Assembly: GCA_049314535.1 (NCBI GenBank)
Contig: JBMOEX010000003.1
Span: 1-39,305 of the forward strand
Length of the DNA stretch: 39,305 nucleotides
Source: Vampirovibrionia bacterium
Lineage (GTDB): Bacteria; Cyanobacteriota; Vampirovibrionia; LMEP-6097
Direction: 5' to 3'
The notes beneath the pieces were generated by a model. That model had not been told where the DNA came from and made no database searches. It saw only the letters and a list, made by a program, of their open reading frames with translations. Below are positions 841-36,141 of this stretch, piece by piece. Numbering within the stretch: position 1 is the stretch's first letter; each line of letters opens with the position of its first letter. The translations under genes and the position numbers were made by a program.

Positions 841-2936
841 AACACTGACGCTGCAAGCGTCACAGCCACATCTTCTATCTCTGGAATATGGGTACCCGGG
901 AAAGCCGTTTTGGTAGCAGAGTCCACCATAATACTACAGTAAGGACAAGCCACACTAACTTTATCTGGCTTATGCTCATTTAATTCCTCGAAACGCATTA
1001 CGTTAATATGACTACCAGGCATTTCGTACCAAATCTGAGCACCACCACCACCACAGCAAGTGCTTTTCTCCCTTTCATTAACAATGCTCTTCAACTGCAA
1101 GCCAGGTATACTCTCAAGAATAAATCTAGGAGGATTAAACACACGATTATATCTACCTAAATAGCAAGGATCGTGATAAGTAACGGAGATGTCAATTGAA
1201 TTCTTCGGTATTAAGCGAGATTCTTGAATTAATTTAGCTAGAATCTCAGTATGGTGATAGATTTCGACATCTTCTAGACCAAATTCTGTATACTCATTCT
1301 TAAAAGTATTATAGACATGCGGACACTGAGTAATGATCTTCTTAACCCCGAAGGCTTTAAAAATTTCAATATTCTCCATGACTATTTCTTGAAACATGGC
1401 TTCATCACCAGCTCTACGAGCGATATCTCCAGAACTCTTTTCCTCATTACCTAAAATAGCGAAACTAAGTCCAGCAGCCTCAAACAACCTTGCATTAGCT
1501 TTAGATACCTCGATATTACGAGTATCATAGGAGCCAGGACTACCTACCCAGTATAAGTATTCAAACTCTGCTTCCGTACGGCTTAAGACTTTAAGCTCCA
1601 TATCATATTCAGACTTAAGAGTATCTACCCACTTCTCTCTATCACTAGGAGCCAGTCCCCAAGGATTAGATTTAGTGCGCACATTTTTAAGTGTAGACTG
1701 TAAATTAGCTGGAGCTTGATTCATCGCCAGCAAGCCACGTCTCATATCAATGATAGTATCCACATGCTCAATTAAGACTGGACACTCTTCTACACAGGCG
1801 TTACAAGAAGTACATGACCAGAGTACGTCTGGATTAATAAATTCATACAAACTCGGAGAGTGTTCTTCATGCTCAGAAGATTTATTACTAAAACCACTAA
1901 CATGGCTTTGAGATAATTTTTTTATATCCAAGAAAAGATGTTTCGGTGAAAGTGGTTTATCAGTATTTTGAGCTGGGCAGACAACATGACAGCGCCCACA
2001 AGCCGTACAAGCTTCACTATCTAAAAGGGTTTTCCATGAAAAATCTTTATACTCAAAAACACCAGCATTAAAATCCTCTTCATTAATTTCTAAGCCCTTT
2101 TCCTCAGCTTCAAGCATATCTGAAAGCTTAAATGGAGTATAAAGCTGTCCCCTAGCTCTCTTTGAATGAAAGAACATAGATAAAGGCGCCATGAAAATAT
2201 GAATAAACTTAGAATATGGTATTAAAGCGATAAAAGCACAAGTTAGCAGAGCATGAGTCCACCAAAGAGTCACATGAGCCCCTCTTAAGTCAGTATCAGT
2301 CATAAATTGAAAAACCTGAGCTAGTGCATTACCAATAAAAGCATAGGACTCGTCTGCTGGAGTAGCAGCGATTCTCAGACCCTCTACCATAAAACCCGTT
2401 ACCGCTAAACTCAATAGAAATACTGGCTGAATCCAATCTCTCTGAGTATTATCAAGTTTTTTACTAGTAAAAAGATAACGACGCAGAGCAAATATCGTGA
2501 TACCAAGAAATAAGAATAATCCCCCAAGCTCGGCTGCAAAGCTAACTAATTTATAAAAGCTGCCTTGAAAAAAATACACCGGTGAATGATCCTGGAAACC
2601 TACTATATTCGTAACGATCCATAGTGTCATAAAGCCAAGAAACACACCAGCATGAGCAAGACCAGGAGTCTTTTTCTGAGAGGTTTTCTTATGCAAGAAA
2701 GCATATGTAAAAACATAAACTAGTCTATTCCAAACATCACTAAAGCGATTTTCTCCTTTCGGGAATTTACCAGCAGTAATAATCAGTATTTTCTTATAAA
2801 CACCATGAATAAGAATTCCTGTAGAAACAAGGATTAAAAAATAAAATAAAATTCTCGCAAAAGGTGCATCAATATTCCACCAGAGCTGGCGGGTTTCTAA
2901 GATAACAGCATTTGGAACTATAAGTGCAGATTCCAT
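837..2936 (-). CDS. Membrane-bound Fe-S oxidoreductase (FadF/HdrD/GlpC-like): NarI-like transmembrane region, 2x[4Fe-4S] dicluster, two CCG domains
   Basis: Motifs CTACGRCHVVCP, CTSCNACVEECP, TYHDPCYLGR, CCGGGG and ACPYC, plus several N-terminal transmembrane helices. Start placed at ATG 2936 to avoid overlap with metH; the ORF track gives 2966. Confidence 0.85.
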   Translation of the reverse strand: MESALIVPNAVILETRQLWWNIDAPFARILFYFLILVSTGILIHGVYKKILIITAGKFPKGENRFSDVWNRLVYVFTYAFLHKKTSQKKTPGLAHAGVFLGFMTLWIVTNIVGFQDHSPVYFFQGSFYKLVSFAAELGGLFLFLGITIFALRRYLFTSKKLDNTQRDWIQPVFLLSLAVTGFMVEGLRIAATPADESYAFIGNALAQVFQFMTDTDLRGAHVTLWWTHALLTCAFIALIPYSKFIHIFMAPLSMFFHSKRARGQLYTPFKLSDMLEAEEKGLEINEEDFNAGVFEYKDFSWKTLLDSEACTACGRCHVVCPAQNTDKPLSPKHLFLDIKKLSQSHVSGFSNKSSEHEEHSPSLYEFINPDVLWSCTSCNACVEECPVLIEHVDTIIDMRRGLLAMNQAPANLQSTLKNVRTKSNPWGLAPSDREKWVDTLKSEYDMELKVLSRTEAEFEYLYWVGSPGSYDTRNIEVSKANARLFEAAGLSFAILGNEEKSSGDIARRAGDEAMFQEIVMENIEIFKAFGVKKIITQCPHVYNTFKNEYTEFGLEDVEIYHHTEILAKLIQESRLIPKNSIDISVTYHDPCYLGRYNRVFNPPRFILESIPGLQLKSIVNEREKSTCCGGGGAQIWYEMPGSHINVMRFEELNEHKPDKVSVACPYCSIMVDSATKTAFPGTHIPEIEDVAVTLAASVF

Positions 2937-2960
2937 TAAACTATAATATATCCTAGAAAT
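2937..2960. promoter_or_regulatory. Putative back-to-back -10 elements in a 24-bp divergent gap
   Basis: Plus strand: TATAAT at 2942-47 and TATCCT at 2949-54, 6 nt before the metH ATG. Minus strand: TATTAT 6 nt before ATG 2936. Confidence 0.4.
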
Positions 2961-5900
2961 ATGCACTTGTCATTAAAGCCAAAACCTAAATTTCTTGAAA
3001 TACTGGCCCAAAAAGTTATTGTCTATGATGGTGCGATGGGGACTAATCTCTTTAATTACAGTCTGACAGCAGATGATTACGGCGGAGCAGCTTTTGAAGG
3101 CTGCCCTGAAATGCTAAATAAAACTAAACCTGAAATTATTCAAGAAATTCATCGTAATTTTTTCAGCGCTGGAGCTGATATTGTTGAGACTAATAGCTTC
3201 GGCTCTAGTAGACTCGTTCTTGGTGAATACGATATCAGTGAAGAAAGTTATGAAATCAGCAAACTTGCAGCTAGATTAGCAAGAGAGGTGGCTGATGAAT
3301 TTACTATCAAAGAACCAGAAAAACCTAGATTTGTAGCTGGCTCTATTGGACCAGGAACTAAACTCGCAACTTTAGGTAATGTTCAATTCGATGAACTTAA
3401 AAACTCCTACTTAGATCAAGTCCGTGGACTAATTGACGGCGGCGTTGATGTTATTCTGATTGAAACCTGCCAAGACCCTCTACAGATAAAGGCCGTACTT
3501 GTAGCTTGCTATGAAATATTTTCTAAGATAGAAGAAGAGTTTAAAGATAAAACCGATGCAGAATTATTAGAAGCTTACCCAAGGGGAGAAATCACTCAGA
3601 TTCAAGATTTCGCAGACAGAGCAACTATTACAAAAAATCACATTCGAACTAGAACTGGCTTATCAAAGAGATTTAGACTTCCACTGCAAGTGCAAATCAC
3701 GATAGAACAAACTGGCACGATGCTAGTCGGTACAGATTTAAATGCCGCACTTACGACCATAGCAGCTTACCCGATAGATATATTCGGGATGAACTGCGCT
3801 ACTGGACCAAAAGAAATGCAGGAACATATTCAGTATTTAAAAGATAACTGCCCAGTAAAAATCAGCTGCTTACCAAATGCTGGTATCCCCGAAAACGTCT
3901 GTGGCCACGCTCATTTCCCATTAGGACCAGATGAATTCACTAGCTATCTTTCTAAATTTATTACTGAATATCAGGTAAACATAGTAGGTGGCTGCTGTGG
4001 TACTAGTTATCAGCATATTAAACAGTTAGCTGATGCCGTAAAAGACTTATCAGCACCACTAAATGATACTAATACTAAAACCCAGGAAGTAAGAAATTCT
4101 CTTTCTTCACTATATTCCGCAATTAATATGGACTTAGATACTAAGCCTATAATAGTCGGAGAAAGAACTAACGCTAATGGCAGTAAGCTTTTCAAAGACT
4201 TACTTGCAAAAGAAGACTATGACGCAATTATAGACTTAGCTAAAGAACAAGTGGAAGAAGGAGCTCAAATTTTAGATCTCTGTGCAGCTTACGTCGGGCG
4301 GAATGAAATACGAGACATGAAGGAAATACTCTTCAAGCTCAATACCGCAATCAGCATACCAATAATGGTAGATAGCACTGAGGCAGATGTTTTAGAAGAA
4401 TCACTTAAATTAATCTCAGGGAAAGCAGTAGTAAACTCAGTCAACCTCGAAGATGGCGAGCATAGAGTTGAACTTATAGCTAAGCTCTGCAATAGATACG
4501 GTGCCGCATTAGTAGTACTCACCATCGATGAAAGTGGTATGGCGAAAACCGCCGAGAAGAAGCTGGAAGTCGCTGAGCGACTATATGATTTACTAGTAAA
4601 TCAACATGGCATGAATGCTAATGACATTATCTTTGATACTCTAACTTTCACTCTCGGCTCTGGGGATGAGGAATTTAGAAAAGCTGGTATTGAAACCATC
4701 GAAGCGATTCGCTTAGTAAAAGAAAAGATGCCTGGAGTAAAGAGCATACTTGGTGTTAGTAATATTTCATTCGGCTTAGATCCTAAATTAAGAACAGCCT
4801 TAAACTCTGTATTCATGCATGAAGCCACTAAAGCTGGTTTAGATATGGCTATCGTCAATAACAAAAAAATCATCCCTCTGCATAAAATAGAAAATCGACT
4901 CAAAGAACTATGCCTAGATTTAATCTACGATAGAAGAATTTTTAAAGATAATGGCGAATGCAGCTTTGATCCACTTATGGAGTTACTCGCCTTAGTCGAA
5001 GATATTAAGTTAGATGATAATGCCAAAACCAATCCCTATGAGGGTTTAAGCGTAGAACAAATACTCTCTCAAAGAATTATAGATGGTAATAAAACTAATA
5101 TCGATAAAGATTTAGATCTAGCAAGAGAAAAGGGACACAAGCCCTTAGACATTATCAATCAATTTCTCATGGATGGTATGAAGATAGTCGGTGAAAGGTT
5201 CGGGGCAGGTGAAATGCAATTACCTTTCGTACTACAGTCTGCTACGACGATGAAGGCAGCAGTATCTCACCTAGAACAGTTTATGGATAAGATTTCAGCT
5301 AATACTCACAAAGGCTCTCTAGTATTAGCTACTGTAAAAGGTGACGTTCATGACATCGGTAAAAACCTAGTCGATATCATACTTTCAAACAACGGTTATA
5401 AAGTTTATAACTTAGGTATAAAACAGCCGATAGAAGAAATCATTAAAGCCATAGAAGAACACAAGCCAGACCTACTCGCACTTTCAGGCTTACTCGTTAA
5501 ATCAACTTTAATAATGAAGCAGAACCTAGAAATTCTAAATGATAGAGGAATAGACCTTCCTGTTATATTAGGCGGGGCAGCTCTTACTAGGCGCTTCGTA
5601 GAACAAGACTGTGCAAATATCTACAAAGGCACTGTCTTTTATGGCTATGATGCCTTTACTGATTTAGATATCATGGAAAGGCTCAGCAGTAAAACCTCAC
5701 TTGATGAGATTAAAAAAGAATTTTATAAAACTAAACCAAGTGCAGAGAATACTAACAGTGCTTACCAAGAGGTAGGAGACTCTGATGAGGACAGCTACGC
5801 ACCATTATTAAGTTACACTGAAAATTTATCCTCAGTCCCAGCTTTAAAGAATGATGCAGTGCCTAAAATCCCCTTTTATGGAGATAAAATCATAGACTCT

Positions 5901-6674
5901 ACAGACATAGATCTTGATGAAATGTGGAGTTATTTAAACTTAGATGCAATGATAATCGGTCAATGGCGTATGGGGAAAGGGAAACGCTCCGACGAAGAGT
6001 ATAAAATATTCTTAGATACTGAAGTCTACCCAGTACTCGAAAGATTAAAAGTAGAAACCAGAAAAAATCCTTGGTTTAAACCTCAAATCATCTATGGTTA
6101 CTACTACTGTAAAATAGATGACACAAACCCAAATCAGCTCAATATTTACTCCGAAGATAAAACTCAAGTCATAGACTCCTTCATCTTTCCAAGACAAAAT
6201 AAGGATGATTATCTCTGCCTAAGTGATTATTTTCGCCTAGAAGATAAAAGCTCTTTCAACATCGTTCCTTTCCAGCTAGTTACCATAGGAGTTTCAGCAG
6301 CAGAATTCGTAAATAAACTTTACCAAGCTGGAGAATTTTCAGAATACCTCTATTACTACGGGCTAGCGACAGAGAGTACTGAAGCACTTGCAGAATATGC
6401 TCATGCTCGTATTAGAAAAGAATTAGGTTTTAGTGCAGAAGATGACAAAGATACGAAAAAATTACTACGCGGCTCTTATCATGGCATGCGTTTTAGCTTT
6501 GGCTATCCTGCCTGCCCTCGACTAGAAGACCAACTGAAGTTATTTGAACTATTTAAGCCAGATAGAATCGGCATGAAATTATCTGAAGAATGGCAAATTC
6601 ACCCAGAACATAGTACATCTGCGATAGTTATTCATCATCCTGCCGCAAAATACTATAATGTAAAAATTAACTAA
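2961..6674 (+). CDS. metH: Cobalamin-dependent methionine synthase
   Basis: Motifs DGAMGT, GMNCATGP, GGCCGT, pterin domain VGERTNANGS, B12-binding KGDVHDIGKNLV...SGLL and activation domain RFSFGYPACP. Confidence 0.97.
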   Translation: MHLSLKPKPKFLEILAQKVIVYDGAMGTNLFNYSLTADDYGGAAFEGCPEMLNKTKPEIIQEIHRNFFSAGADIVETNSFGSSRLVLGEYDISEESYEISKLAARLAREVADEFTIKEPEKPRFVAGSIGPGTKLATLGNVQFDELKNSYLDQVRGLIDGGVDVILIETCQDPLQIKAVLVACYEIFSKIEEEFKDKTDAELLEAYPRGEITQIQDFADRATITKNHIRTRTGLSKRFRLPLQVQITIEQTGTMLVGTDLNAALTTIAAYPIDIFGMNCATGPKEMQEHIQYLKDNCPVKISCLPNAGIPENVCGHAHFPLGPDEFTSYLSKFITEYQVNIVGGCCGTSYQHIKQLADAVKDLSAPLNDTNTKTQEVRNSLSSLYSAINMDLDTKPIIVGERTNANGSKLFKDLLAKEDYDAIIDLAKEQVEEGAQILDLCAAYVGRNEIRDMKEILFKLNTAISIPIMVDSTEADVLEESLKLISGKAVVNSVNLEDGEHRVELIAKLCNRYGAALVVLTIDESGMAKTAEKKLEVAERLYDLLVNQHGMNANDIIFDTLTFTLGSGDEEFRKAGIETIEAIRLVKEKMPGVKSILGVSNISFGLDPKLRTALNSVFMHEATKAGLDMAIVNNKKIIPLHKIENRLKELCLDLIYDRRIFKDNGECSFDPLMELLALVEDIKLDDNAKTNPYEGLSVEQILSQRIIDGNKTNIDKDLDLAREKGHKPLDIINQFLMDGMKIVGERFGAGEMQLPFVLQSATTMKAAVSHLEQFMDKISANTHKGSLVLATVKGDVHDIGKNLVDIILSNNGYKVYNLGIKQPIEEIIKAIEEHKPDLLALSGLLVKSTLIMKQNLEILNDRGIDLPVILGGAALTRRFVEQDCANIYKGTVFYGYDAFTDLDIMERLSSKTSLDEIKKEFYKTKPSAENTNSAYQEVGDSDEDSYAPLLSYTENLSSVPALKNDAVPKIPFYGDKIIDSTDIDLDEMWSYLNLDAMIIGQWRMGKGKRSDEEYKIFLDTEVYPVLERLKVETRKNPWFKPQIIYGYYYCKIDDTNPNQLNIYSEDKTQVIDSFIFPRQNKDDYLCLSDYFRLEDKSSFNIVPFQLVTIGVSAAEFVNKLYQAGEFSEYLYYYGLATESTEALAEYAHARIRKELGFSAEDDKDTKKLLRGSYHGMRFSFGYPACPRLEDQLKLFELFKPDRIGMKLSEEWQIHPEHSTSAIVIHHPAAKYYNVKIN

Positions 6675-6682
6675 ATTAAACA

Positions 6683-7468
6683 ATGAAAAATGATTTTTTA
6701 TCAAGCCTACTTAATATCATCAAAGCCTTCTTCGTTGGAATAGCTTATGGATTTTATGATTTAATTCCAGTCAAAAAAACACCACGAAATGAGCCTATAG
6801 AGCTGCATGACAGTAGCTGGAAAAAATATTATAAAGTGCCAGAATGGAGATACTTTATAGTACGAGAAATAACCGCTCAAATAGTTATAGTATTAGTTTT
6901 ACTAGTCATCGTAAGAACGACTATTGGTGAATTCAGATACATACCAAGCGAAAGCATGTTACCGACCTTAAAAATCGGCGATAAACTTTTCGTAGAAAAA
7001 ATAAGCAGACTTTTCAGAAAAGAATATCAGCGTGGAGATATTATTATTTTCTTTCCACCAGCTTCAGCAAGTGAAGGCCACGAAAGTATATTAAAAGATC
7101 CAGTTAGCTTATTAATTCGCCTAACAGGTTTACCATTTCTACCTCAGCCAGAGGCTTACATTAAAAGGCTTATCGGTTTACCTGGAGATAAAGTTGAAGT
7201 AATAAAAGGCGATGGTATATACATTAACGATAAAAAACTTTTAGAACCTTACTATGAAGGTAGTCCTGAATTTATTGCCGCCTATGATTACGGAGCAGTC
7301 ACGGTTCCAGCCAATAATTACCTGGTTTTTGGTGATAATCGTAACTTTAGCTATGACAGCCATTACTGGGGCTTCCTTCCGAAAGATAGGGTTATAGGCA
7401 GAGCTGCTTTTTTAATTTATAGAAGTCTTGATCAAAAACCACATTTTTTTGATGCCCCAATGTTATAA
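6683..7468 (+). CDS. lepB: Signal peptidase I
   Basis: Motifs IPSESMLPTL (catalytic Ser), YIKRLIGLPGD (catalytic Lys) and GDNRNFSYDSHYWG, preceded by a transmembrane helix. Confidence 0.95.
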   Translation: MKNDFLSSLLNIIKAFFVGIAYGFYDLIPVKKTPRNEPIELHDSSWKKYYKVPEWRYFIVREITAQIVIVLVLLVIVRTTIGEFRYIPSESMLPTLKIGDKLFVEKISRLFRKEYQRGDIIIFFPPASASEGHESILKDPVSLLIRLTGLPFLPQPEAYIKRLIGLPGDKVEVIKGDGIYINDKKLLEPYYEGSPEFIAAYDYGAVTVPANNYLVFGDNRNFSYDSHYWGFLPKDRVIGRAAFLIYRSLDQKPHFFDAPML

Positions 7469-7478
7469 ATTAAACTGA

Positions 7479-9167
7479 ATGCTCAATTTCCAGCTTTTTC
7501 TAATTCTATTAACGGCACTTCTAGTTTTCTCATTTGGAGTAGCTTCTGTGCCTATTGCTGGAGTAGATGAAGGTAGATTTACTCAGGCCTCTCTTAATAT
7601 GCTTATTAGTGGCGACTGGTTCATTCCACAAGTCGATGGTATTTTAAGGCTAGAAAAACCCATACTATTTTACTGGGAACAGGCTGTTTCATTTTTAATC
7701 TTCGGTACTACTGAATTTGCTGCTCGCTTACCCTCGGTGCTATCTGCTACAGGTTTAGTTGCGTTAGCTTATTTCATGGGTGGCATACAAGGCACACCTT
7801 TAATCGCAGGGTTAATCTGCTTAAGTACCTTATTCATAAACTTCTTTGCGAAAGTAGCTATGATTGATATGAGTCTATGCTTATTAATCTCTGCGACACT
7901 GAGTTTTTTCTTTCTATCTTATTTCTTTAAAACTAAAACTAATAATATTTTCAATAGGCAAAACTCCGATACTAGAATATATTTTTACCTAGCTAGCTTT
8001 AGTGCCTCTCTAGGCTTCCTCTGTAAGGGTCCTATAGCCTTAGCCTTGCCTAGTATAATCATATTCATCTTTTTATTAAAAGAAAAAGAACTAATCATAT
8101 TTTTTGCTCAAAAAAAATATGATTCATTAATTTGTATTGGAATGTTTCTCTTAATAAATATTCCTTGGTATCTTCTTGCCCATATAAAAACTCATGGTGA
8201 ATTTACTAAAAGCTTTTTTCTCGGAGATAATCTAGGACGTTTTCTAGAAACCACCAGTAATCATGGTGGAGCGATTTGGTTCTACATACCCGTAATTCTT
8301 GTCGGATTTTTCCCTTGGTCATTCTTCTTGGTACAAGCATTATTAAACGATCAAAACTCAAGCAAGGTATCTAGGATTAATATTATTGACAATACCAATA
8401 CCTTAAGAAGGTTTAACTTAATCTGGATTGCCGTGACTTTTATTTTCTTTAGCCTTTCTCAAACTAAATTAATTACCTATATTTTACCGATTTCACTGCC
8501 TCTAATTTTAACCATAGCCAAATATTGGTCAATGAAAATGAATGCTGGACGAGGTTTTCAAAATAGAAATTATGATATTTTAGGTGGTTTTCTGGCTTTA
8601 TTTATCACTGTTCCAATCTGCTTATTAATTATTTTAGATAAATTAAGCAACTCCTTAAATGCTCAATTAGTCGGAGAATTACAGTTTTTCCTAGTAATCA
8701 TAGGAATATTTTTCTCCTGCACGCTGATTATCGCAATGACTTCAGTTAAAACTAATCTCAAATTATCTTTTGGGCTAATTCTTATTTTCTCGCTCTGTCT
8801 ATATTTATTTTCTATGGAATTAATAGCTAAACCACTAATAAACAACTTAGATGGTGGTATTAAAAGCTTTTGCACCGAAATCTATGCCCCCGCAAAAGAA
8901 CATGCAAAAAAGCATAAAAGAAAAATAGCAAAGCTTGCTAGCTATAAATTAAATAGAGCCAGCATCGGTTTTTACTGCAAAGATACTGTAAATAACTTCA
9001 ATGATATAAACTCTTTAAATAAATTCTTGGCTTCACCAGAGACATTTCAGAGACCTGTTTATTTACTAGTTAGAAATGATGAGTTGCAAAATATTACAAA
9101 TCAAATAATCAGAGTACGTACGATAATTAAAAAAACGGATAAGCTATCGCTGCTTAGAATTAGCTGA
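7479..9167 (+). CDS. ArnT/PMT-family (GT-C) membrane glycosyltransferase
   Basis: Motifs DEGRF, EKPILFYW, FAARLPS, LCKGP, WFYIP...FFPWS and KLITYILP, with many transmembrane helices. Confidence 0.88.
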   Translation: MLNFQLFLILLTALLVFSFGVASVPIAGVDEGRFTQASLNMLISGDWFIPQVDGILRLEKPILFYWEQAVSFLIFGTTEFAARLPSVLSATGLVALAYFMGGIQGTPLIAGLICLSTLFINFFAKVAMIDMSLCLLISATLSFFFLSYFFKTKTNNIFNRQNSDTRIYFYLASFSASLGFLCKGPIALALPSIIIFIFLLKEKELIIFFAQKKYDSLICIGMFLLINIPWYLLAHIKTHGEFTKSFFLGDNLGRFLETTSNHGGAIWFYIPVILVGFFPWSFFLVQALLNDQNSSKVSRINIIDNTNTLRRFNLIWIAVTFIFFSLSQTKLITYILPISLPLILTIAKYWSMKMNAGRGFQNRNYDILGGFLALFITVPICLLIILDKLSNSLNAQLVGELQFFLVIIGIFFSCTLIIAMTSVKTNLKLSFGLILIFSLCLYLFSMELIAKPLINNLDGGIKSFCTEIYAPAKEHAKKHKRKIAKLASYKLNRASIGFYCKDTVNNFNDINSLNKFLASPETFQRPVYLLVRNDELQNITNQIIRVRTIIKKTDKLSLLRIS

Positions 9168-32375: not shown

Positions 32376-33167
32376 CTAAATCATCAGTAAAATCACACCC
32401 AAAATAATTCGATAAACCACAAATAAAGTAAAAGTATTCTTACTTAAAAACTTAATTAAAAAATCTATAGAAATTAAACCAGCAAGGAAGCTAGTAAAGA
32501 AGCCTACAGCGAAATATAAGCCCTCGTTCATTAAATCAAAACTCGCACCAGCAGCGGTATAGATTTCAAACAGATCTTTAGTCGCAAGCAAACCAGCACC
32601 CGCAATAGCTGGGCTACCCAATAAAAAAGCAAAACGCACAGCGGCAGCACGACTTAAGCCTAAGCTTAATCCAGCCAAAGAACAAATCCCAGAGCGAGAT
32701 ACTCCAGGGAATAATGCAAGGCACTGTGCCAGACCAATTAAAACAGTATCTTTAAAAGAGATATCTGAAATTTCTTTTTTCTGAGGAAAAAGCTTATCTG
32801 CGATAAAAAGCAATACTGCCACAATAAATAAAGTAAAAGCTATAAACTTCGTAGAACGCAGTAATAATGAGTGTTCAAAGAATGGCTTACAGGTAAAACC
32901 AATAATAACTACAGGTAAAGTAGCCACAAGAATAGCAAGTAATAATTTTCGCTGTGATTTATCTAGAATCAAGCTCAGAAGATCTTTTCTAAAATAAATT
33001 AAAATCGCAAATAAAGTTCCTAAATGTAAAAAAGCATCAACGTTAAGCCCAGGGTCCTGCCAGTGAAGCAGCTTTGGGAAAAGAATCAAGTGAGCGGAAC
33101 TGCTAATCGGCAGCATTTCAGTTACACCCTGAACTAAGCCGAGAATAAAAATCTGGAAAATATCCAT
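32376..33167 (-). CDS. uppP: Undecaprenyl-diphosphate phosphatase
   Basis: Motifs LGLVQGVTEMLPISSSAHL, HLGT, AQCLALFPGVSRSG and FVVYR. Confidence 0.95.
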   Translation of the reverse strand: MDIFQIFILGLVQGVTEMLPISSSAHLILFPKLLHWQDPGLNVDAFLHLGTLFAILIYFRKDLLSLILDKSQRKLLLAILVATLPVVIIGFTCKPFFEHSLLLRSTKFIAFTLFIVAVLLFIADKLFPQKKEISDISFKDTVLIGLAQCLALFPGVSRSGICSLAGLSLGLSRAAAVRFAFLLGSPAIAGAGLLATKDLFEIYTAAGASFDLMNEGLYFAVGFFTSFLAGLISIDFLIKFLSKNTFTLFVVYRIILGVILLMI

Positions 33168-33203
33168 AAATAAAATATTAATCTAAAAAGCTGTATTTAA
33201 TGC

Positions 33204-34115
33204 TTAAACAACAAATAAATCAGGACGATATTTTTTAGTCATTTTTAAAGCCTCTTCTATTCTCCAGAAAAGAATTTTTTTATGATCACCAGACTGTAAG
33301 ACCTCTGGAACAGTCTTTCCATAAAAATCTTTAGGGCGAGTATAATGTGGATACTCTAAAAGACGTAAAGCCAGAAAGCTTTCTAGAGATTTAACACCAT
33401 AGTCCAAAAGCAAATCCTGAAGGCGTTTCAGCTCAGCTTTAGTAAAATCATAATCCTTTAGATGAAAGAGCTCTTGAGCTGTGCTAAAGCTGTCAGCAGC
33501 ATGGCTTTCAGCAGAGCCTAAGACATTAGGCACTAAACGAGAAACAGCGTCTATAACTGCCATAGCAGCAAGCTCACCACCCGTTAAAATAAAATCCCCC
33601 AAAGAAATCACTTTAGTCGCTAAAGAATAAATCCTCTCATCGAAACCCTCATAGTGACCGCAAAGCATGATGATTTGTTTTTTCTGCGCGAGCTCTGAAA
33701 CGAGCTGCTGATTTAAGACTGCACCTCGTGGTGAAAAAATTATCACCTCAGGGGCGTGTAGCTGAACTCCAATTTCTGCGTTTTCGTCGTCCTCATGATC
33801 CTCATGTATTCGTGATACACTGCGGTCATTCGTCCTCCTCAGCCTTGAACTTGTTCGTTCAGCCACACGCCCCTCTGAGGCACTAGACGATATCACAGAT
33901 TCAAGACAGTCATAAAAAGGCTGCGGTGAAAGCAGCATCCCAGCACCGCCGCCATAAGGGGTATCATCCACTTTTTTATGTTTATTAAGAGAGAAGTCTC
34001 TAGGATTATGCACGAGAACCTCACAGACTCTAGATTTCTGGGCATTCGCCAAAATACTAGTATTACAGTAAGACTGAATTAATTCTGGAAATAGAGTCAG
34101 GACATCAAAGCGCAT
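33204..34115 (-). CDS. trmD: tRNA (guanine-37-N1)-methyltransferase, with two in-frame insertions
   Basis: Motifs VLTLFPE, VDDTPYGGGAGM, CGHYEGFDER, SLGDFILTGGE, LLEYPHYTRP and VPEVLQSGDH. Confidence 0.96.
   Translation of the reverse strand: MRFDVLTLFPELIQSYCNTSILANAQKSRVCEVLVHNPRDFSLNKHKKVDDTPYGGGAGMLLSPQPFYDCLESVISSSASEGRVAERTSSRLRRTNDRSVSRIHEDHEDDENAEIGVQLHAPEVIIFSPRGAVLNQQLVSELAQKKQIIMLCGHYEGFDERIYSLATKVISLGDFILTGGELAAMAVIDAVSRLVPNVLGSAESHAADSFSTAQELFHLKDYDFTKAELKRLQDLLLDYGVKSLESFLALRLLEYPHYTRPKDFYGKTVPEVLQSGDHKKILFWRIEEALKMTKKYRPDLFVV
33751..33873. mobile_element. 123-bp palindromic MITE/RPE-like element inserted in frame in trmD
   Basis: Terminal inverted repeat GGGGCGTGTAGCTGAAC / GTTCAGCCACACGCCCC (16 of 17 match), central TGTAT-N5-ATACA hairpin, GC-richer than its flanks, length divisible by 3. 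Confidence 0.8.
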
Positions 34116-34129
34116 TAAAAACTTCTCCC

Positions 34130-35206
34130 TTACACATAAAACAGCTTGGGATTTATAAATTCCTTATCCTTAGTATTAGCTAAAAGATATCCAGCCGCTT
34201 CCAAATAATTATTAACCACTTTATGCGGTATAGCATAGAAATCCGCAGTATCATCAATCACAGTCTGATTATTAAGCACAGTCAGCAATTGAATTTCAGA
34301 CCTATGAGCTTCTATCATGGGAACACCATTACAGCAATCATAAGGCACTACCAAGTTAGATAAATCAGCCACCCTAATATCATCCTCTTTAGGATTTAAA
34401 TCCCAATCAGCTGGATTTACATATTCAGACTGAAGCAGTTTATAAGAGTGTTTCAGGGGAATAATCCTTGGCGAAAACTGAAGGCACTTAAATACTGAAG
34501 GCAGAAAGGTATGTGCGAGCTGCTCAGCTGCTACCCGCGGGTGAACTACCCCTTCATGCTGAATAGGATAATCGAAGACTGGTGCATGAGCAGAAGGAAT
34601 TAGAAACTGCTTGGAGACCATATGCGAAATTTTCGCTTCTATAGAGCCGATAGGATCTGCACCAGCTCCATCTAAATATTCTTTAGAATTTTCTGAATCT
34701 AAGGCTAAAGGTAATTTAACTAATAAAGCTAAAGCAGTCGCCCCAGCTTCTACAGCCTGCTTGCAGGCATTTAAAAGCGGAACTATATTACCAAGCCCTT
34801 CTAGGCTAACATTTAGAGGAATATCCGTATAAAAAATATTTTCTATCACATCCAATCCATAAACATTCTCCGCCGCATGGATAGCATTTTCAGTAATTTC
34901 CTTCTCTCTTAAAGCCGCTCCTGAATCCATAATCACGGCTATTTTATGCTTCACATTCAGGCGCAGGCATATTTGGTTAGCAAAAAATCTATCTAAAAGA
35001 TATCCTTCGAGAACCGTCACATTCTGCGGAATATCAGTAAGTGCCGCAGCATTTATAACATTCGGGTGAGTGATAAGCAGGTCAGAGGCTTTCGCTAAAA
35101 GCTTAGCTACAGGGGTGCCATCGCCAGCATAACCACCAATTTTCGCCCCGATTCCAGTAGGAATAATTAATGCATTGATGTTTCTATAAAGTTTCTTTAC
35201 CGTCAT
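34130..35206 (-). CDS. DUF3326 domain protein
   Basis: Motifs LIIPTGIGAKIGGYAGD, LITHPNVINAA, GADPIGSIEAKISH, AHAP, AAEQLAHTFLPSV and NYLEAAG. Confidence 0.88.
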   Translation of the reverse strand: MTVKKLYRNINALIIPTGIGAKIGGYAGDGTPVAKLLAKASDLLITHPNVINAAALTDIPQNVTVLEGYLLDRFFANQICLRLNVKHKIAVIMDSGAALREKEITENAIHAAENVYGLDVIENIFYTDIPLNVSLEGLGNIVPLLNACKQAVEAGATALALLVKLPLALDSENSKEYLDGAGADPIGSIEAKISHMVSKQFLIPSAHAPVFDYPIQHEGVVHPRVAAEQLAHTFLPSVFKCLQFSPRIIPLKHSYKLLQSEYVNPADWDLNPKEDDIRVADLSNLVVPYDCCNGVPMIEAHRSEIQLLTVLNNQTVIDDTADFYAIPHKVVNNYLEAAGYLLANTKDKEFINPKLFYV

Positions 35207-35253: not shown

Positions 35254-36141
35254 ATGAATTTTGAGTTCTCACCTACCAGTATAAATTTTGGAACCACTCT
35301 TGAGTCCTCACCTACCACTGGTATAAATATTGGAACTAATACTTTTGATATAAACAAAAGTGTTATTCCAATTACTGAAACGCCTAAAAACCAAACGCTT
35401 ACAATTAATGATAATTATAAAGATACTTTTTCTACCTCTTCTACCTCAGAAAAACCCTCACTCACAGAGACATTACTTTTTAATCCATCAACAACAAATG
35501 CAAGTATTTTCACAAATACAAATGTAAATACTTCAACAAATCAAAATATTATCAATACAATAAATTTTGATGATCCAAATATTACTTTCGGCTTCTCAGA
35601 CATTAAAATTAACACTAATACTTTTAATGTTGATAACGAATGGATAAATAATGCCGATAATATCAATTTTAGCTTTAATACAGTGCAAGAAGATTTATTA
35701 AAAAACCTAATCGAACCTGAAGCAGTCTACGATATAAATGAACTAATAGATGACACCGATATATTATATTCAGAGACCTTTGTTAGTTACGACTACCATG
35801 ATGATCCTCTACCAAACAATTATTATTATTCAGACGACGAAAACTCAGAAATACGCGCAGGAAGTCCCGAGTTTCATGCATTAACGAAGGAAGACCAAGG
35901 CTTAATACTAGGTCAATTAAATACAGAAACTGCACAGAAGAACGCAGTAGAAGAACTCACTTCATGGGGAGTTCCTAGACATATTGCACTGGCTATAGTA
36001 ACAAACAATACTGAATCATTAAAAGAAAAAACTAAAGGAATGTCAAGCGAAACTGCTTCTAAGTACCTAAGCTTAGCTGGTCTAAGTATCACAGAAAATA
36101 CACAATACGAGAGCAAAATTTTAGGCTTAACTATAAGCTAA
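35254..36141 (+). CDS. Hypothetical Thr/Asn-rich acidic low-complexity protein
   Basis: 295-aa ORF filling the gap between two minus-strand genes; N-terminal imperfect duplication (EFSPTSINFGT / ESSPTTGINIGT). Confidence 0.65.
   Translation: MNFEFSPTSINFGTTLESSPTTGINIGTNTFDINKSVIPITETPKNQTLTINDNYKDTFSTSSTSEKPSLTETLLFNPSTTNASIFTNTNVNTSTNQNIINTINFDDPNITFGFSDIKINTNTFNVDNEWINNADNINFSFNTVQEDLLKNLIEPEAVYDINELIDDTDILYSETFVSYDYHDDPLPNNYYYSDDENSEIRAGSPEFHALTKEDQGLILGQLNTETAQKNAVEELTSWGVPRHIALAIVTNNTESLKEKTKGMSSETASKYLSLAGLSITENTQYESKILGLTIS

Follow-up and report, generated by a model that had tools for sequence, protein, structure and literature searches.

A probable non-autonomous mobile element read in frame within trmD and other genes of a Vampirovibrionia bacterium

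Introduction

The trmD gene of a Vampirovibrionia bacterium (GenBank assembly GCA_049314535.1), a non-photosynthetic relative of cyanobacteria, encodes an essential tRNA methyltransferase and contains a palindromic segment that leaves its reading frame intact, which raises the question of how this segment came to lie within a conserved enzyme and what it contributes to the protein. The gene was examined in a stretch of 39,305 nucleotides, positions 1 to 39,305 of contig JBMOEX010000003.1, which is referred to here as the window and to which all bare coordinates refer. It is an uninterrupted open reading frame (ORF) of 303 amino acids on the minus strand (33204-34115). A first-pass annotation, made from the sequence alone, had described the segment as a palindromic selfish element translated as part of TrmD just ahead of the SPRG motif, and had proposed that it belongs to a family of transposable elements of the miniature inverted-repeat type (MITEs) that resembles the Rickettsia palindromic elements (RPEs) and creates new protein sequence in a lineage far from Rickettsiales. 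The analyses presented here lead us to regard the insert, with a probability of roughly 85%, as an in-frame copy of a non-autonomous transposon of the MITE type that is read through as a disordered loop of TrmD.

Results

Filled, empty and truncated alleles of trmD

An inverted-repeat search located two 18-nt arms, 94% complementary, at 33750-33767 and 33857-33874. Comparison of filled and empty trmD alleles, using an alignment of trmD DNA from the six matching genomes of the genus, placed the element proper at 33752-33872, a length of 121 bp bounded by 16-nt terminal stem arms (33752-33767 and 33857-33872) that pair with one A.C mismatch; its purine-rich strand is the trmD sense strand (minus). 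On the plus strand it is flanked by a 5-bp target-site duplication, CTCAG at 33747-33751 and CTCTG at 33873-33877. The net gain in trmD is 126 bp or 42 codons (33747-33872, minus strand), corresponding to residues 82-123 and to a protein of 303 amino acids as opposed to 261 in the congener G006. The palindromic insert of the first-pass annotation is real, as judged by its arms, the intact ORF, the many copies and the strong hairpin described below, and it does stand just before SPRG, with the peptide given for it and the frame unbroken. Its borders required correction, from 123 bp and 41 codons to 121 bp and a gain of 126 bp and 42 codons; the inverted repeats, given as 17 bp with one mismatch, were refined to 16 bp; and the possible 3-bp duplication TCA/TCT gave way to one of 5 bp.

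The congeners provide a series of alleles at this site. In G006, trmD retains an empty site, GCCTCAGAGGTGATA, with a single CAGAG, and this is the empty allele for which the earlier annotation had called. The full insert is present in G001 and G004 between perfect CAGAG/CAGAG copies on the coding strand, and in the source genome the flanks read CAGAG/CTGAG, a difference that reflects one synonymous change, CCA to CCT. The G002 gene carries the same insertion minus 84 bp in frame, having lost the sense-5' part of the element together with 12 bp of host sequence, and G003 has unrelated residues at the insert position. Outside the insert, identity of trmD to the source is 96% for G004, 93% for G001 and G002, 85% for G006 and 70% for G003. 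The filled or remnant alleles in the source, G001, G002 and G004, taken with the empty G006 allele, date the insertion to the common ancestor of those four sampled species, after the G006 lineage had split off.

Public sequencing runs extend this picture. Twenty runs from 14 studies (freshwater, lake and unspecified metagenomes) contained at least part of the trmD stretch; all were DNA except three RNA runs, which gave only 2-3 short contigs. In two DNA runs of relatives that are approximately 96% identical, contigs enter the element from trmD on both sides and end there, with summed read depth of 2000-7700 in the element bins vs about 9 in the flanks. Among the four public runs examined, there was no contig spanning the whole element and none with the empty allele. 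One 183-nt contig from an RNA library covers 33826-33932 and crosses the junction of element and trmD with 3 differences, which is a weak hint of transcription, as carry-over of DNA is possible.

A multicopy family with a fixed target duplication

The source genome (2.1 Mb in 188 contigs) contains many copies of this element. BLASTN with the trmD element gave 268 matches, of which 30 are at least 100 bp long, 38 are 60-99 bp and 200 are shorter, and similarity between copies is 87-96% at the DNA level across dozens of unrelated genes and spacers. Two internal segments proved useful for counting. An invariant 24-nt left core (33765-33788), which adjoins one terminal arm and encodes DENAEIGV on the sense strand, occurs 193 times at no more than 4 mismatches, and these occurrences, representing copies or remnants, are called anchors here. 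A conserved 17-nt right core (33837-33853) occurs 114 times at no more than 3 mismatches. Solo ends are distributed unequally, with 116 left cores that lack a right core vs about 37 right cores that lack a left core. The three grounds on which the first-pass annotation would have abandoned a mobile origin, a single copy, a lack of empty-site orthologues and conservation as protein rather than as DNA, are at odds with these counts, with the empty G006 allele and with the similarity of the copies as DNA.

Both arms are retained in 77 copies, for which the predominant length is 121 bp (n=43), followed by 202 bp (n=10), 75 bp (n=8), 190, 196 and 199 bp (n=3 each), 130 and 78 bp (n=2 each) and three singles. 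The 75-bp form is missing the central 46-48 bp. In the 190-202-bp forms a module of 69-81 bp with short inverted ends of its own is nested inside the central small hairpin, which in the trmD copy lies at 33804-33820 and consists of a 6-bp stem and a 5-nt loop that differs between copies. The nested module (e.g. C11:15578-15768, C24:19136-19336 and C18:833-1035) has covarying inner stems and resembles an element within an element.

Over the 77 two-armed copies, the 5-bp duplication is perfect in 16 and matches at four of five positions in 26, while shuffled partners give 0.9% and 6.3%, respectively; flanks thus match at four or more positions in 42 of 77 copies vs about 7% for shuffled partners. 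The duplicated target has T at position 2 in 35 of these 42 and A or T at position 4 in 41.

The distribution of the family was examined in 31 genomes of the order. Element DNA is present in all seven genomes of the genus (22-345 first-look candidates each), is weaker in all three genomes of one other genus, and gives marginal single matches (E about 1e-4) in two of three genomes from yet another genus; no element DNA turned up in the remaining 11 genera among these 31 genomes. The exact 24-mer core occurs in at least 105 stretches of a genome-contig database, and the 80 matches listed all fall in five metagenome-assembled genomes (MAGs) titled Melainabacteria, Caenarcaniphilales, Cyanobacteria, plain 'bacterium' and, in one case, 'Proteobacteria'. 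Apart from the last two titles, this agrees with the proposed distance from Rickettsiales. A scan of viral contigs for the 24-nt core returned one contig (L300, 14.9 kb) with a one-armed in-frame remnant in an ORF. As that ORF matches an ORF on source contig C27, the contig provides no evidence for a phage vehicle and, although filed as viral, may be host DNA or a genomic island.

Residence in genes is largely confined to one frame

The position of the anchors relative to ORFs is strongly biased. Long ORFs (150 codons or more) contain 111 of the 193 anchors, of which 99 share a single orientation and phase and 12 are in other frames; the remainder comprise 3 in frames of 100-149 codons and 79 in frames of less than 100 codons. 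For comparison, 87% of 5000 random 38-mers fall within ORFs of at least 150 codons. The in-frame copies share the peptide ...(G)(R/T)VAER(A/T)SSRLRRTNDRSV..HEDHEDDENAEIGV, followed by 5 variable residues. Among two-armed copies within long ORFs, 37 of 38 use this frame. By length, 26 of 46 copies in the 121-130-bp class lie in long ORFs, all in the shared frame, as do 11 of 20 in the 190-202-bp class (10 in the shared frame) and 1 of 11 in the 75-82-bp class. Twelve copies have a length that, once 5 is added, cannot be divided by three; every one of them falls outside long ORFs, and the longest frame across each measures 30-81 codons. One frame of the opposite consensus strand is likewise free of stops, yet it is hardly ever used.

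Intergenic copies do not share this bias. Between co-directional genes, 17 are in sense and 10 in antisense orientation, which is no significant strand preference; convergent gene pairs flank 25 more and divergent pairs 11, and 16 stand at the ends of contigs. The strand and frame bias within genes therefore reflects selection on the survivors and not a preference at insertion. On the sense strand of the trmD copy, 33822-33838 contains a Shine-Dalgarno-like GAGGAGG four bases before an out-of-frame ATG, and in intergenic copies this sequence could serve as a ribosome-binding site.

Pfam domains span or flank the insert in 18 of 19 host ORFs with a full copy, and the insert is often within the domain, which bears out the expectation that further copies would be found in frame in other genes, here housekeeping enzymes. 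Hosts include CoaBC, FtsX, LpxB, a menaquinone-synthesis protein, a cytochrome c assembly protein, glutamyl-tRNA synthetase, a tRNA U5-methyltransferase, TsaE, an ABC ATPase, GH31, HPPK, an MFS transporter and a nucleoside phosphorylase.

Location of the insert in the TrmD fold

The protein matches the Pfam family tRNA_m1G_MT (PF01746; E 3.5e-54) in three separate stretches, and trmD is the only locus in the source assembly with a match to this family. Its closest named relatives are TrmD proteins of Melainabacteria/Gastranaerophilales at 38-44% identity. An AlphaFold2 model built from a 34-sequence alignment has a mean predicted local distance difference test (pLDDT) score of 81.7 and a predicted template modelling (pTM) score of 0.75, and superposes on solved TrmD structures with template modelling (TM) scores of 0.80-0.89 normalised to the target. 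The only segment below a pLDDT of 50 comprises residues 82-118, between a helix (64-83) and a strand (123-133, EVIIFSPRGAV), and the sequences of solved TrmD proteins align to residues 1-74, 123-212 and 252-301, passing over the insert. The 42 inserted residues are hydrophilic, with a basic half followed by an acidic half. As modelled, the insert forms a disordered loop between the helix and the strand that leads to SPRG, in agreement with the loop position that had been predicted. The SPRG motif itself (S128-P129-R130-G131; 33723-33734, minus strand) follows closely on the insert, and P129 and G131 are nearly invariant or invariant in the TrmD alignment.

Other genera of the family have unrelated extra residues, from 0 to about 100 amino acids, in the same loop; this loop tolerates changes in length and is a hot spot for them. 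Examples are L046 (G011) and the set L036-L047, with unrelated insertions of approximately 8 to 100 residues in the loop equivalent to 33747-33890.

A second extra segment of about 39 residues was observed between the N- and C-terminal domains of TrmD (residues 213-251; 33363-33479). It is present in nearly every aligned genome of the family, one short fragment excepted; neither class-level relatives nor any of the solved TrmD sequences have it. It is predicted to form three short helices (mean pLDDT 71-95 in 10-residue blocks) and is unrelated to the mobile element.

Turnover of copies between species

To follow the fate of individual copies, 41 full 121-bp copies with flanks from G001, G002, G004 and G006 were compared with the orthologous sites of the source genome. 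The source had a full copy at 6 of these, an empty site (no more than 8 nt) at 10 and another state, mostly a shorter remnant, at 21, while 4 were without a resolved orthologue. Two more shared full copies, on contigs C8 and C35, are visible in alignments but fall below the strict filter. In G006, the most distant congener, none of 11 copies is shared in full. Exact empty sites were seen (e.g. a duplicated ATTAG in G001 vs a single ATTAG in the source), as were internal deletions that retain both ends (e.g. a copy of 121 bp in G001 that corresponds to a 75-bp form in the source) and one-sided deletions between orthologous copies. Short forms and solo ends thus arise in place by deletion. At one site (L156 in G001 vs source C48:11894-12014) the element stands in opposite orientations and 17 extra bases lie beside the source copy, which is consistent with either an inversion between the arms or a separate nearby insertion.

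Genomic context of trmD

The neighbours of trmD, all on the minus strand, are a DUF3326 gene (34130-35206) and an undecaprenyl-diphosphatase gene (32376-33167). The customary neighbours of trmD, rimM and rplS, are not adjacent to it within 32376-35206. An ORF at 35254-36141 is rich in asparagine and threonine and is without a Pfam match. The region of the inverted arms has a G+C content of about 51% vs 35.8% genome-wide.

Discussion

Proposed origin and fate of the trmD insert

The sequence of events that best accounts for these results begins with a 121-bp MITE whose 16-bp inverted ends would pair as a long hairpin. A transposase acting in trans would cleave the target with a 5-bp stagger, so that 5 bp of target are duplicated on insertion. 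As 121 + 5 = 126 is a multiple of three and the purine-rich strand has a stop-free frame, an insertion in the right orientation and phase would neither shift nor end the frame of its host. Insertion at CAGAG in trmD would have occurred in the ancestor of the four sampled species, and read-through would yield the 42-residue disordered loop. Selection would remove insertions of the wrong frame, orientation or frameshifting length, and the resident copies would erode by in-frame internal or one-sided deletion.

Evidence that weighs against a plain transposable element

Several observations do not sit easily with this account, and the first concerns the mobiliser. A partner transposase was not found in the genus genomes searched; MAGs commonly lose insertion sequence (IS) copies. 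All genomes used here are MAGs, 79-93% complete with one at 54%. In five genus genomes, neither a Tn3-type DDE transposase (PF01526) nor a Y1 transposase (IS200/RAYT; PF01797) was found, the Y1 control being positive in 6 of 14 genomes, and DDE_Tnp_1 was not found in the source genome. Congeners have 1-11 matches to DDE_Tnp_1, and the source genome has an rve fragment containing a stop, rve occurring in some congeners as well; these congener IS copies were rejected as parents, their inverted ends being unlike the element arms. The TnpB zinc ribbon gave one weak match in the five genomes, in G002. A parent element was also sought between distant inverted pairs of arms in the source genome, and the intervals examined contain no transposon but ordinary genes, for a FliI-type ATPase, a sugar transferase, Lgt, DapF, FtsQ, TruA and GrpE. 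The IS with matching ends that the first-pass annotation had suggested seeking was therefore not recovered by either the arm-pair or the transposase-family searches. Two congeners (L147, G002:C50:7-1278; L148, G006:C72) carry an IS of 1272 bp that has 20-bp inverted ends and a DDE_Tnp_1 frame of 410 codons; it is not in the source assembly, and its ends are unrelated to the element arms.

Translation of the insert also belongs among these points, as it is a matter of inference and the RNA contig could come from library DNA.

The ends of the element present a further difficulty. As RNA, the purine-rich sense strand has a folding energy of -50.8 kcal/mol (z -7.6), compared with -38 kcal/mol (z -4.1) for the other strand, and the sense strand as DNA gives -24.7 (z -5.6); the strong hairpin expected from the palindrome is thus present on the coding strand. 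Covariation was assessed on an ungapped alignment of 50 distinct 121-bp copies from the source genome and G001, in which covariation and mismatch counts include copies related by descent and are not independent. In the 16-bp terminal helix, 13 of 16 pairs are changed on both sides and 92.9% of cells are paired. Covariation over the whole structure is 0.259 vs 0.103 for shuffled alignments, a value reached by none of 500, and is at most 0.075 with slid partners. All cells of the central 6-bp hairpin (100%) are paired, two of its pairs are compensatory, and in 43 of 50 copies its closing pair on the sense strand is G.U. Stem mismatches on the pyrimidine-rich strand are A:C in 44 cases and G:T in 22, so that wobble pairs are twice as frequent on the sense strand. 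The 89 nt between the arms are almost invariant, the 5-nt loop excepted. The ends therefore vary and covary while the interior is invariant, which is the reverse of what sequence-specific recognition of transposon ends predicts. A permissive Rfam 15 scan of both strands of 33600-34000 gave only one chance-level match, outside the element (E 6.9, 14 bits vs a gathering threshold of 50).

Finally, resident copies change slowly. The comparison comprises nine orthologous pairs, all from short-read MAGs. In shared full copies, 10 of 486 core positions (2.1%) are changed vs 217 of 3414 flank positions (6.4%; P = 4e-5), and the trmD element differs from that of G001 at 2 of 121 positions vs 20 of 100 four-fold sites (P = 4e-6). 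Against G004, the trmD element is changed at 2 of 121 positions and four-fold sites at 15 of 111 (P = 6e-4), and over the pairs of source and G004 copies the non-loop element positions are changed at 1 of 339 vs 4.5% in the flanks. Stems are changed at 7 of 192 positions, all seven in one pair, leaving 0 of 160 in the other five, and loops at 7 of 48. Such slow change relative to the flanking coding DNA would not be expected of mere junk DNA. Two shared copies outside long ORFs (C35 and C62) are just as conserved, and selection at the level of the peptide is therefore not the cause.

Possible selection or recognition of the hairpin

Several of these observations would fit an alternative in which the segment is of mobile origin but its hairpin and core are selected where they stand, as a structure in the sense RNA or as a DNA site in approximately 100 genes, or in which a mover recognises the folded hairpin and core and not the sequences of the ends. 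The stem covariation, the wobble asymmetry and the better folding of the sense RNA all favour it, and so do the unchanged stems, the slow change of the G004 copies and the equal conservation of the two intergenic copies. Recent recombination or transfer of a filled allele would offer another cause of low divergence, but the flanks diverge by 5.6% in the nearest bin (6-30 bp) and by 5.0% in the next (31-60 bp), then by 7.6, 6.2 and 7.0% further out, with no clear tract or dip near the element. Hairpin-templated repair was discarded on theoretical grounds, since the rate of substitution per pair would not fall as a result.

Gene conversion competes with selection in place, as exchange among 100-200 near-identical copies can hold the core uniform. 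Between shared copies the loops are either identical or largely replaced (0, 0, 0, 3 and 4 of 8 positions), a pattern that points to replacement or conversion. In glutamyl-tRNA synthetase (L176 in G002 vs source C99:1929-2050) the stems show compensatory changes and the central hairpin is different, with flanks 7.8% apart; this pair looks like a replacement or conversion by another copy, or the element could have inserted twice at this position. Conversion does not account for the way in which copy-specific stem variants stay constant across species. Frequent loss and truncation between congeners argue against a function needed at each site, the orientation bias of intergenic copies is not significant, and in short-read MAGs, the source of all nine pairs, repeats might assemble towards a consensus. 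On balance we consider selection or recognition of the hairpin unlikely, but it is the most serious competitor. Under it, the hairpin and core would be kept at the nucleotide level in genes and spacers alike and the ends would need to pair rather than to hold a given sequence, which would imply either an undescribed structure-recognising mode of mobilisation or a sense-strand hairpin of RNA or DNA co-opted across about 100 housekeeping genes, for instance as a handle to which a protein or nuclease binds; we regard this as a tentative proposal.

Other explanations

The insert might be absent from the finished protein, either because it is cut from the mRNA or because ribosomes bypass it from GAG to GAG of the duplication copies. 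Programmed translational bypassing occurs in T4 gene 60 and at the yeast mitochondrial 'byp' elements, and in trmD a GAG codon does stand in the same phase in both duplication copies with a strong hairpin between them. Under bypass, however, both the frame and the length of the insert would be free, whereas the stop-free sense frame is used by 99 of the 111 anchors in long ORFs (150 codons or more), such ORFs contain none of the 12 copies with a frameshifting length, and deletions within genes are in frame, such as the 84 bp lost from G002 trmD; the Rfam scan also gave no ribozyme or intron match. We consider this explanation very improbable.

Spread through an RNA copy by target-primed reverse transcription would explain the excess of one fixed end among the solo cores. 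It is contradicted by the one-sided and internal deletions that arise in place from full copies, in G002 trmD and in other pairs, and by a duplication fixed at 5 bp. A reverse-transcriptase domain (RVT_1, E 1.3e-13) was found in a 512-codon frame at C131:2533-3093 of the source genome, the only one of the five genus genomes to have it, while all five carry the family. This route appears slightly less credible still. An old, vertically inherited and immobile TrmD loop conserved as protein, for which the unrelated residues of other genera in the same loop might speak, is refuted for practical purposes by the near-identical DNA in dozens of unrelated genes and spacers, the 5-bp duplication and the precise empty site.

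Comparison with known systems

The in-frame MITE copy that we favour can be compared with several classes of bacterial repeats. According to the 2024 MITE review PMC10969869, RPEs are elements of about 150 bp in ten families, with 44 copies in R. conorii, and nearly half lie in ORFs, where they are fused in frame and encode a conserved peptide. The same text describes high-frequency in-frame invasion of essential genes as documented mainly for Rickettsia and calls such invasion in other prokaryotes conceivable (PMC10969869). As far as that account goes, the trmD family is alike in being a short hairpin repeat (about 100-150 bp) in frame in many unrelated housekeeping genes, with one conserved peptide per family, a stated compatibility with the host fold and about half of its copies in ORFs. 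The host phylum, with Melainabacteria-type relatives of cyanobacteria, is unrelated, a relation by sequence is not expected, and the likeness is one of mode of action. The trmD element differs in its clear 16-bp inverted ends and 5-bp target duplication, in ends that covary round an invariant core and in orthologous copies that are conserved and not decaying, and its load is higher, with about 100 in-frame copies or remnants per 2.1 Mb vs the 44 RPE copies given for R. conorii. In-frame presence in unrelated genes and residence in a tolerated surface loop, for which TrmD alone was examined, are both found here, and a Rickettsiales host is not. By analogy, the element appears to work like an RPE without being a member by descent.

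Bacterial MITEs named in PMC10969869 include Correia, ERIC, Nezha and QMITE1 of Coxiella. In the terms of that text, they share with the present family a small size, the lack of a transposase gene, inverted ends, a duplication, many copies, presence or absence between strains and occasional in-frame fusions. The family has a length of 121 bp (with variants of 75 and 190-202 bp), no frames other than those of host read-through, 16-bp arms, a fixed 5-bp duplication and dispersed copies whose orthologous sites are filled in some genomes and empty in others; the feature not found is a parent IS or transposase sharing its ends. It is unlike MITEs in general in that no parent IS was found, the ends are variable and the interior constant, and intragenic occupancy of a single frame is the rule.

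Among other hairpin repeats, REPINs are extragenic, make no target duplication and are accompanied by a RAYT gene. The present family resembles REP/REPIN sequences as an abundant, clade-confined hairpin repeat in which pairing matters and the arms change together, and is unlike them in having a 5-bp duplication, half of its copies within genes and no Y1_Tnp match in the five genus genomes. Tn3-family ends are about 38 bp long and conserved. Tn3-derived miniature elements (TIMEs) are alike in the 5-bp duplication and in ends that start with a run of G, but the ends here are 16 bp and variable and the five genus genomes have no Tn3 transposase domain. PARCELs, according to PMC2996958, are tandem coding repeats of 25 residues in surface or membrane proteins of unknown function. 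So described, they are alike as dyad-symmetric coding DNA that lengthens proteins as it spreads, both inside a genome and from one genome to another, whereas the element inserts singly, as 42 codons with a target duplication, inside conserved enzymes.

No description of such elements in Melainabacteria or Caenarcaniphilales was found in the literature searched, which did not cover subscription journals. The family is an RPE-like in-frame MITE family in a phylum where none has been described, and the proposal of an RPE-like MITE that creates new protein sequence is supported by its many copies, their common frame and the empty and filled alleles.

Implications

These results would provide a second, independent and denser case of in-frame invasion by selfish DNA, in a free-living freshwater lineage. 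The family has hallmarks for which the Rickettsia case is not known: defined ends, a fixed duplication and many sets of filled, empty and remnant alleles between species, of which the trmD copy is a clean filled/empty/truncated series. Such sets turn several questions into matters of counting, namely how often and where a 42-residue insert is tolerated, how fast it is trimmed and whether any is retained. That resident copies change slowly and that their ends covary could reflect either a new form of transposon-end recognition or a co-opted function.

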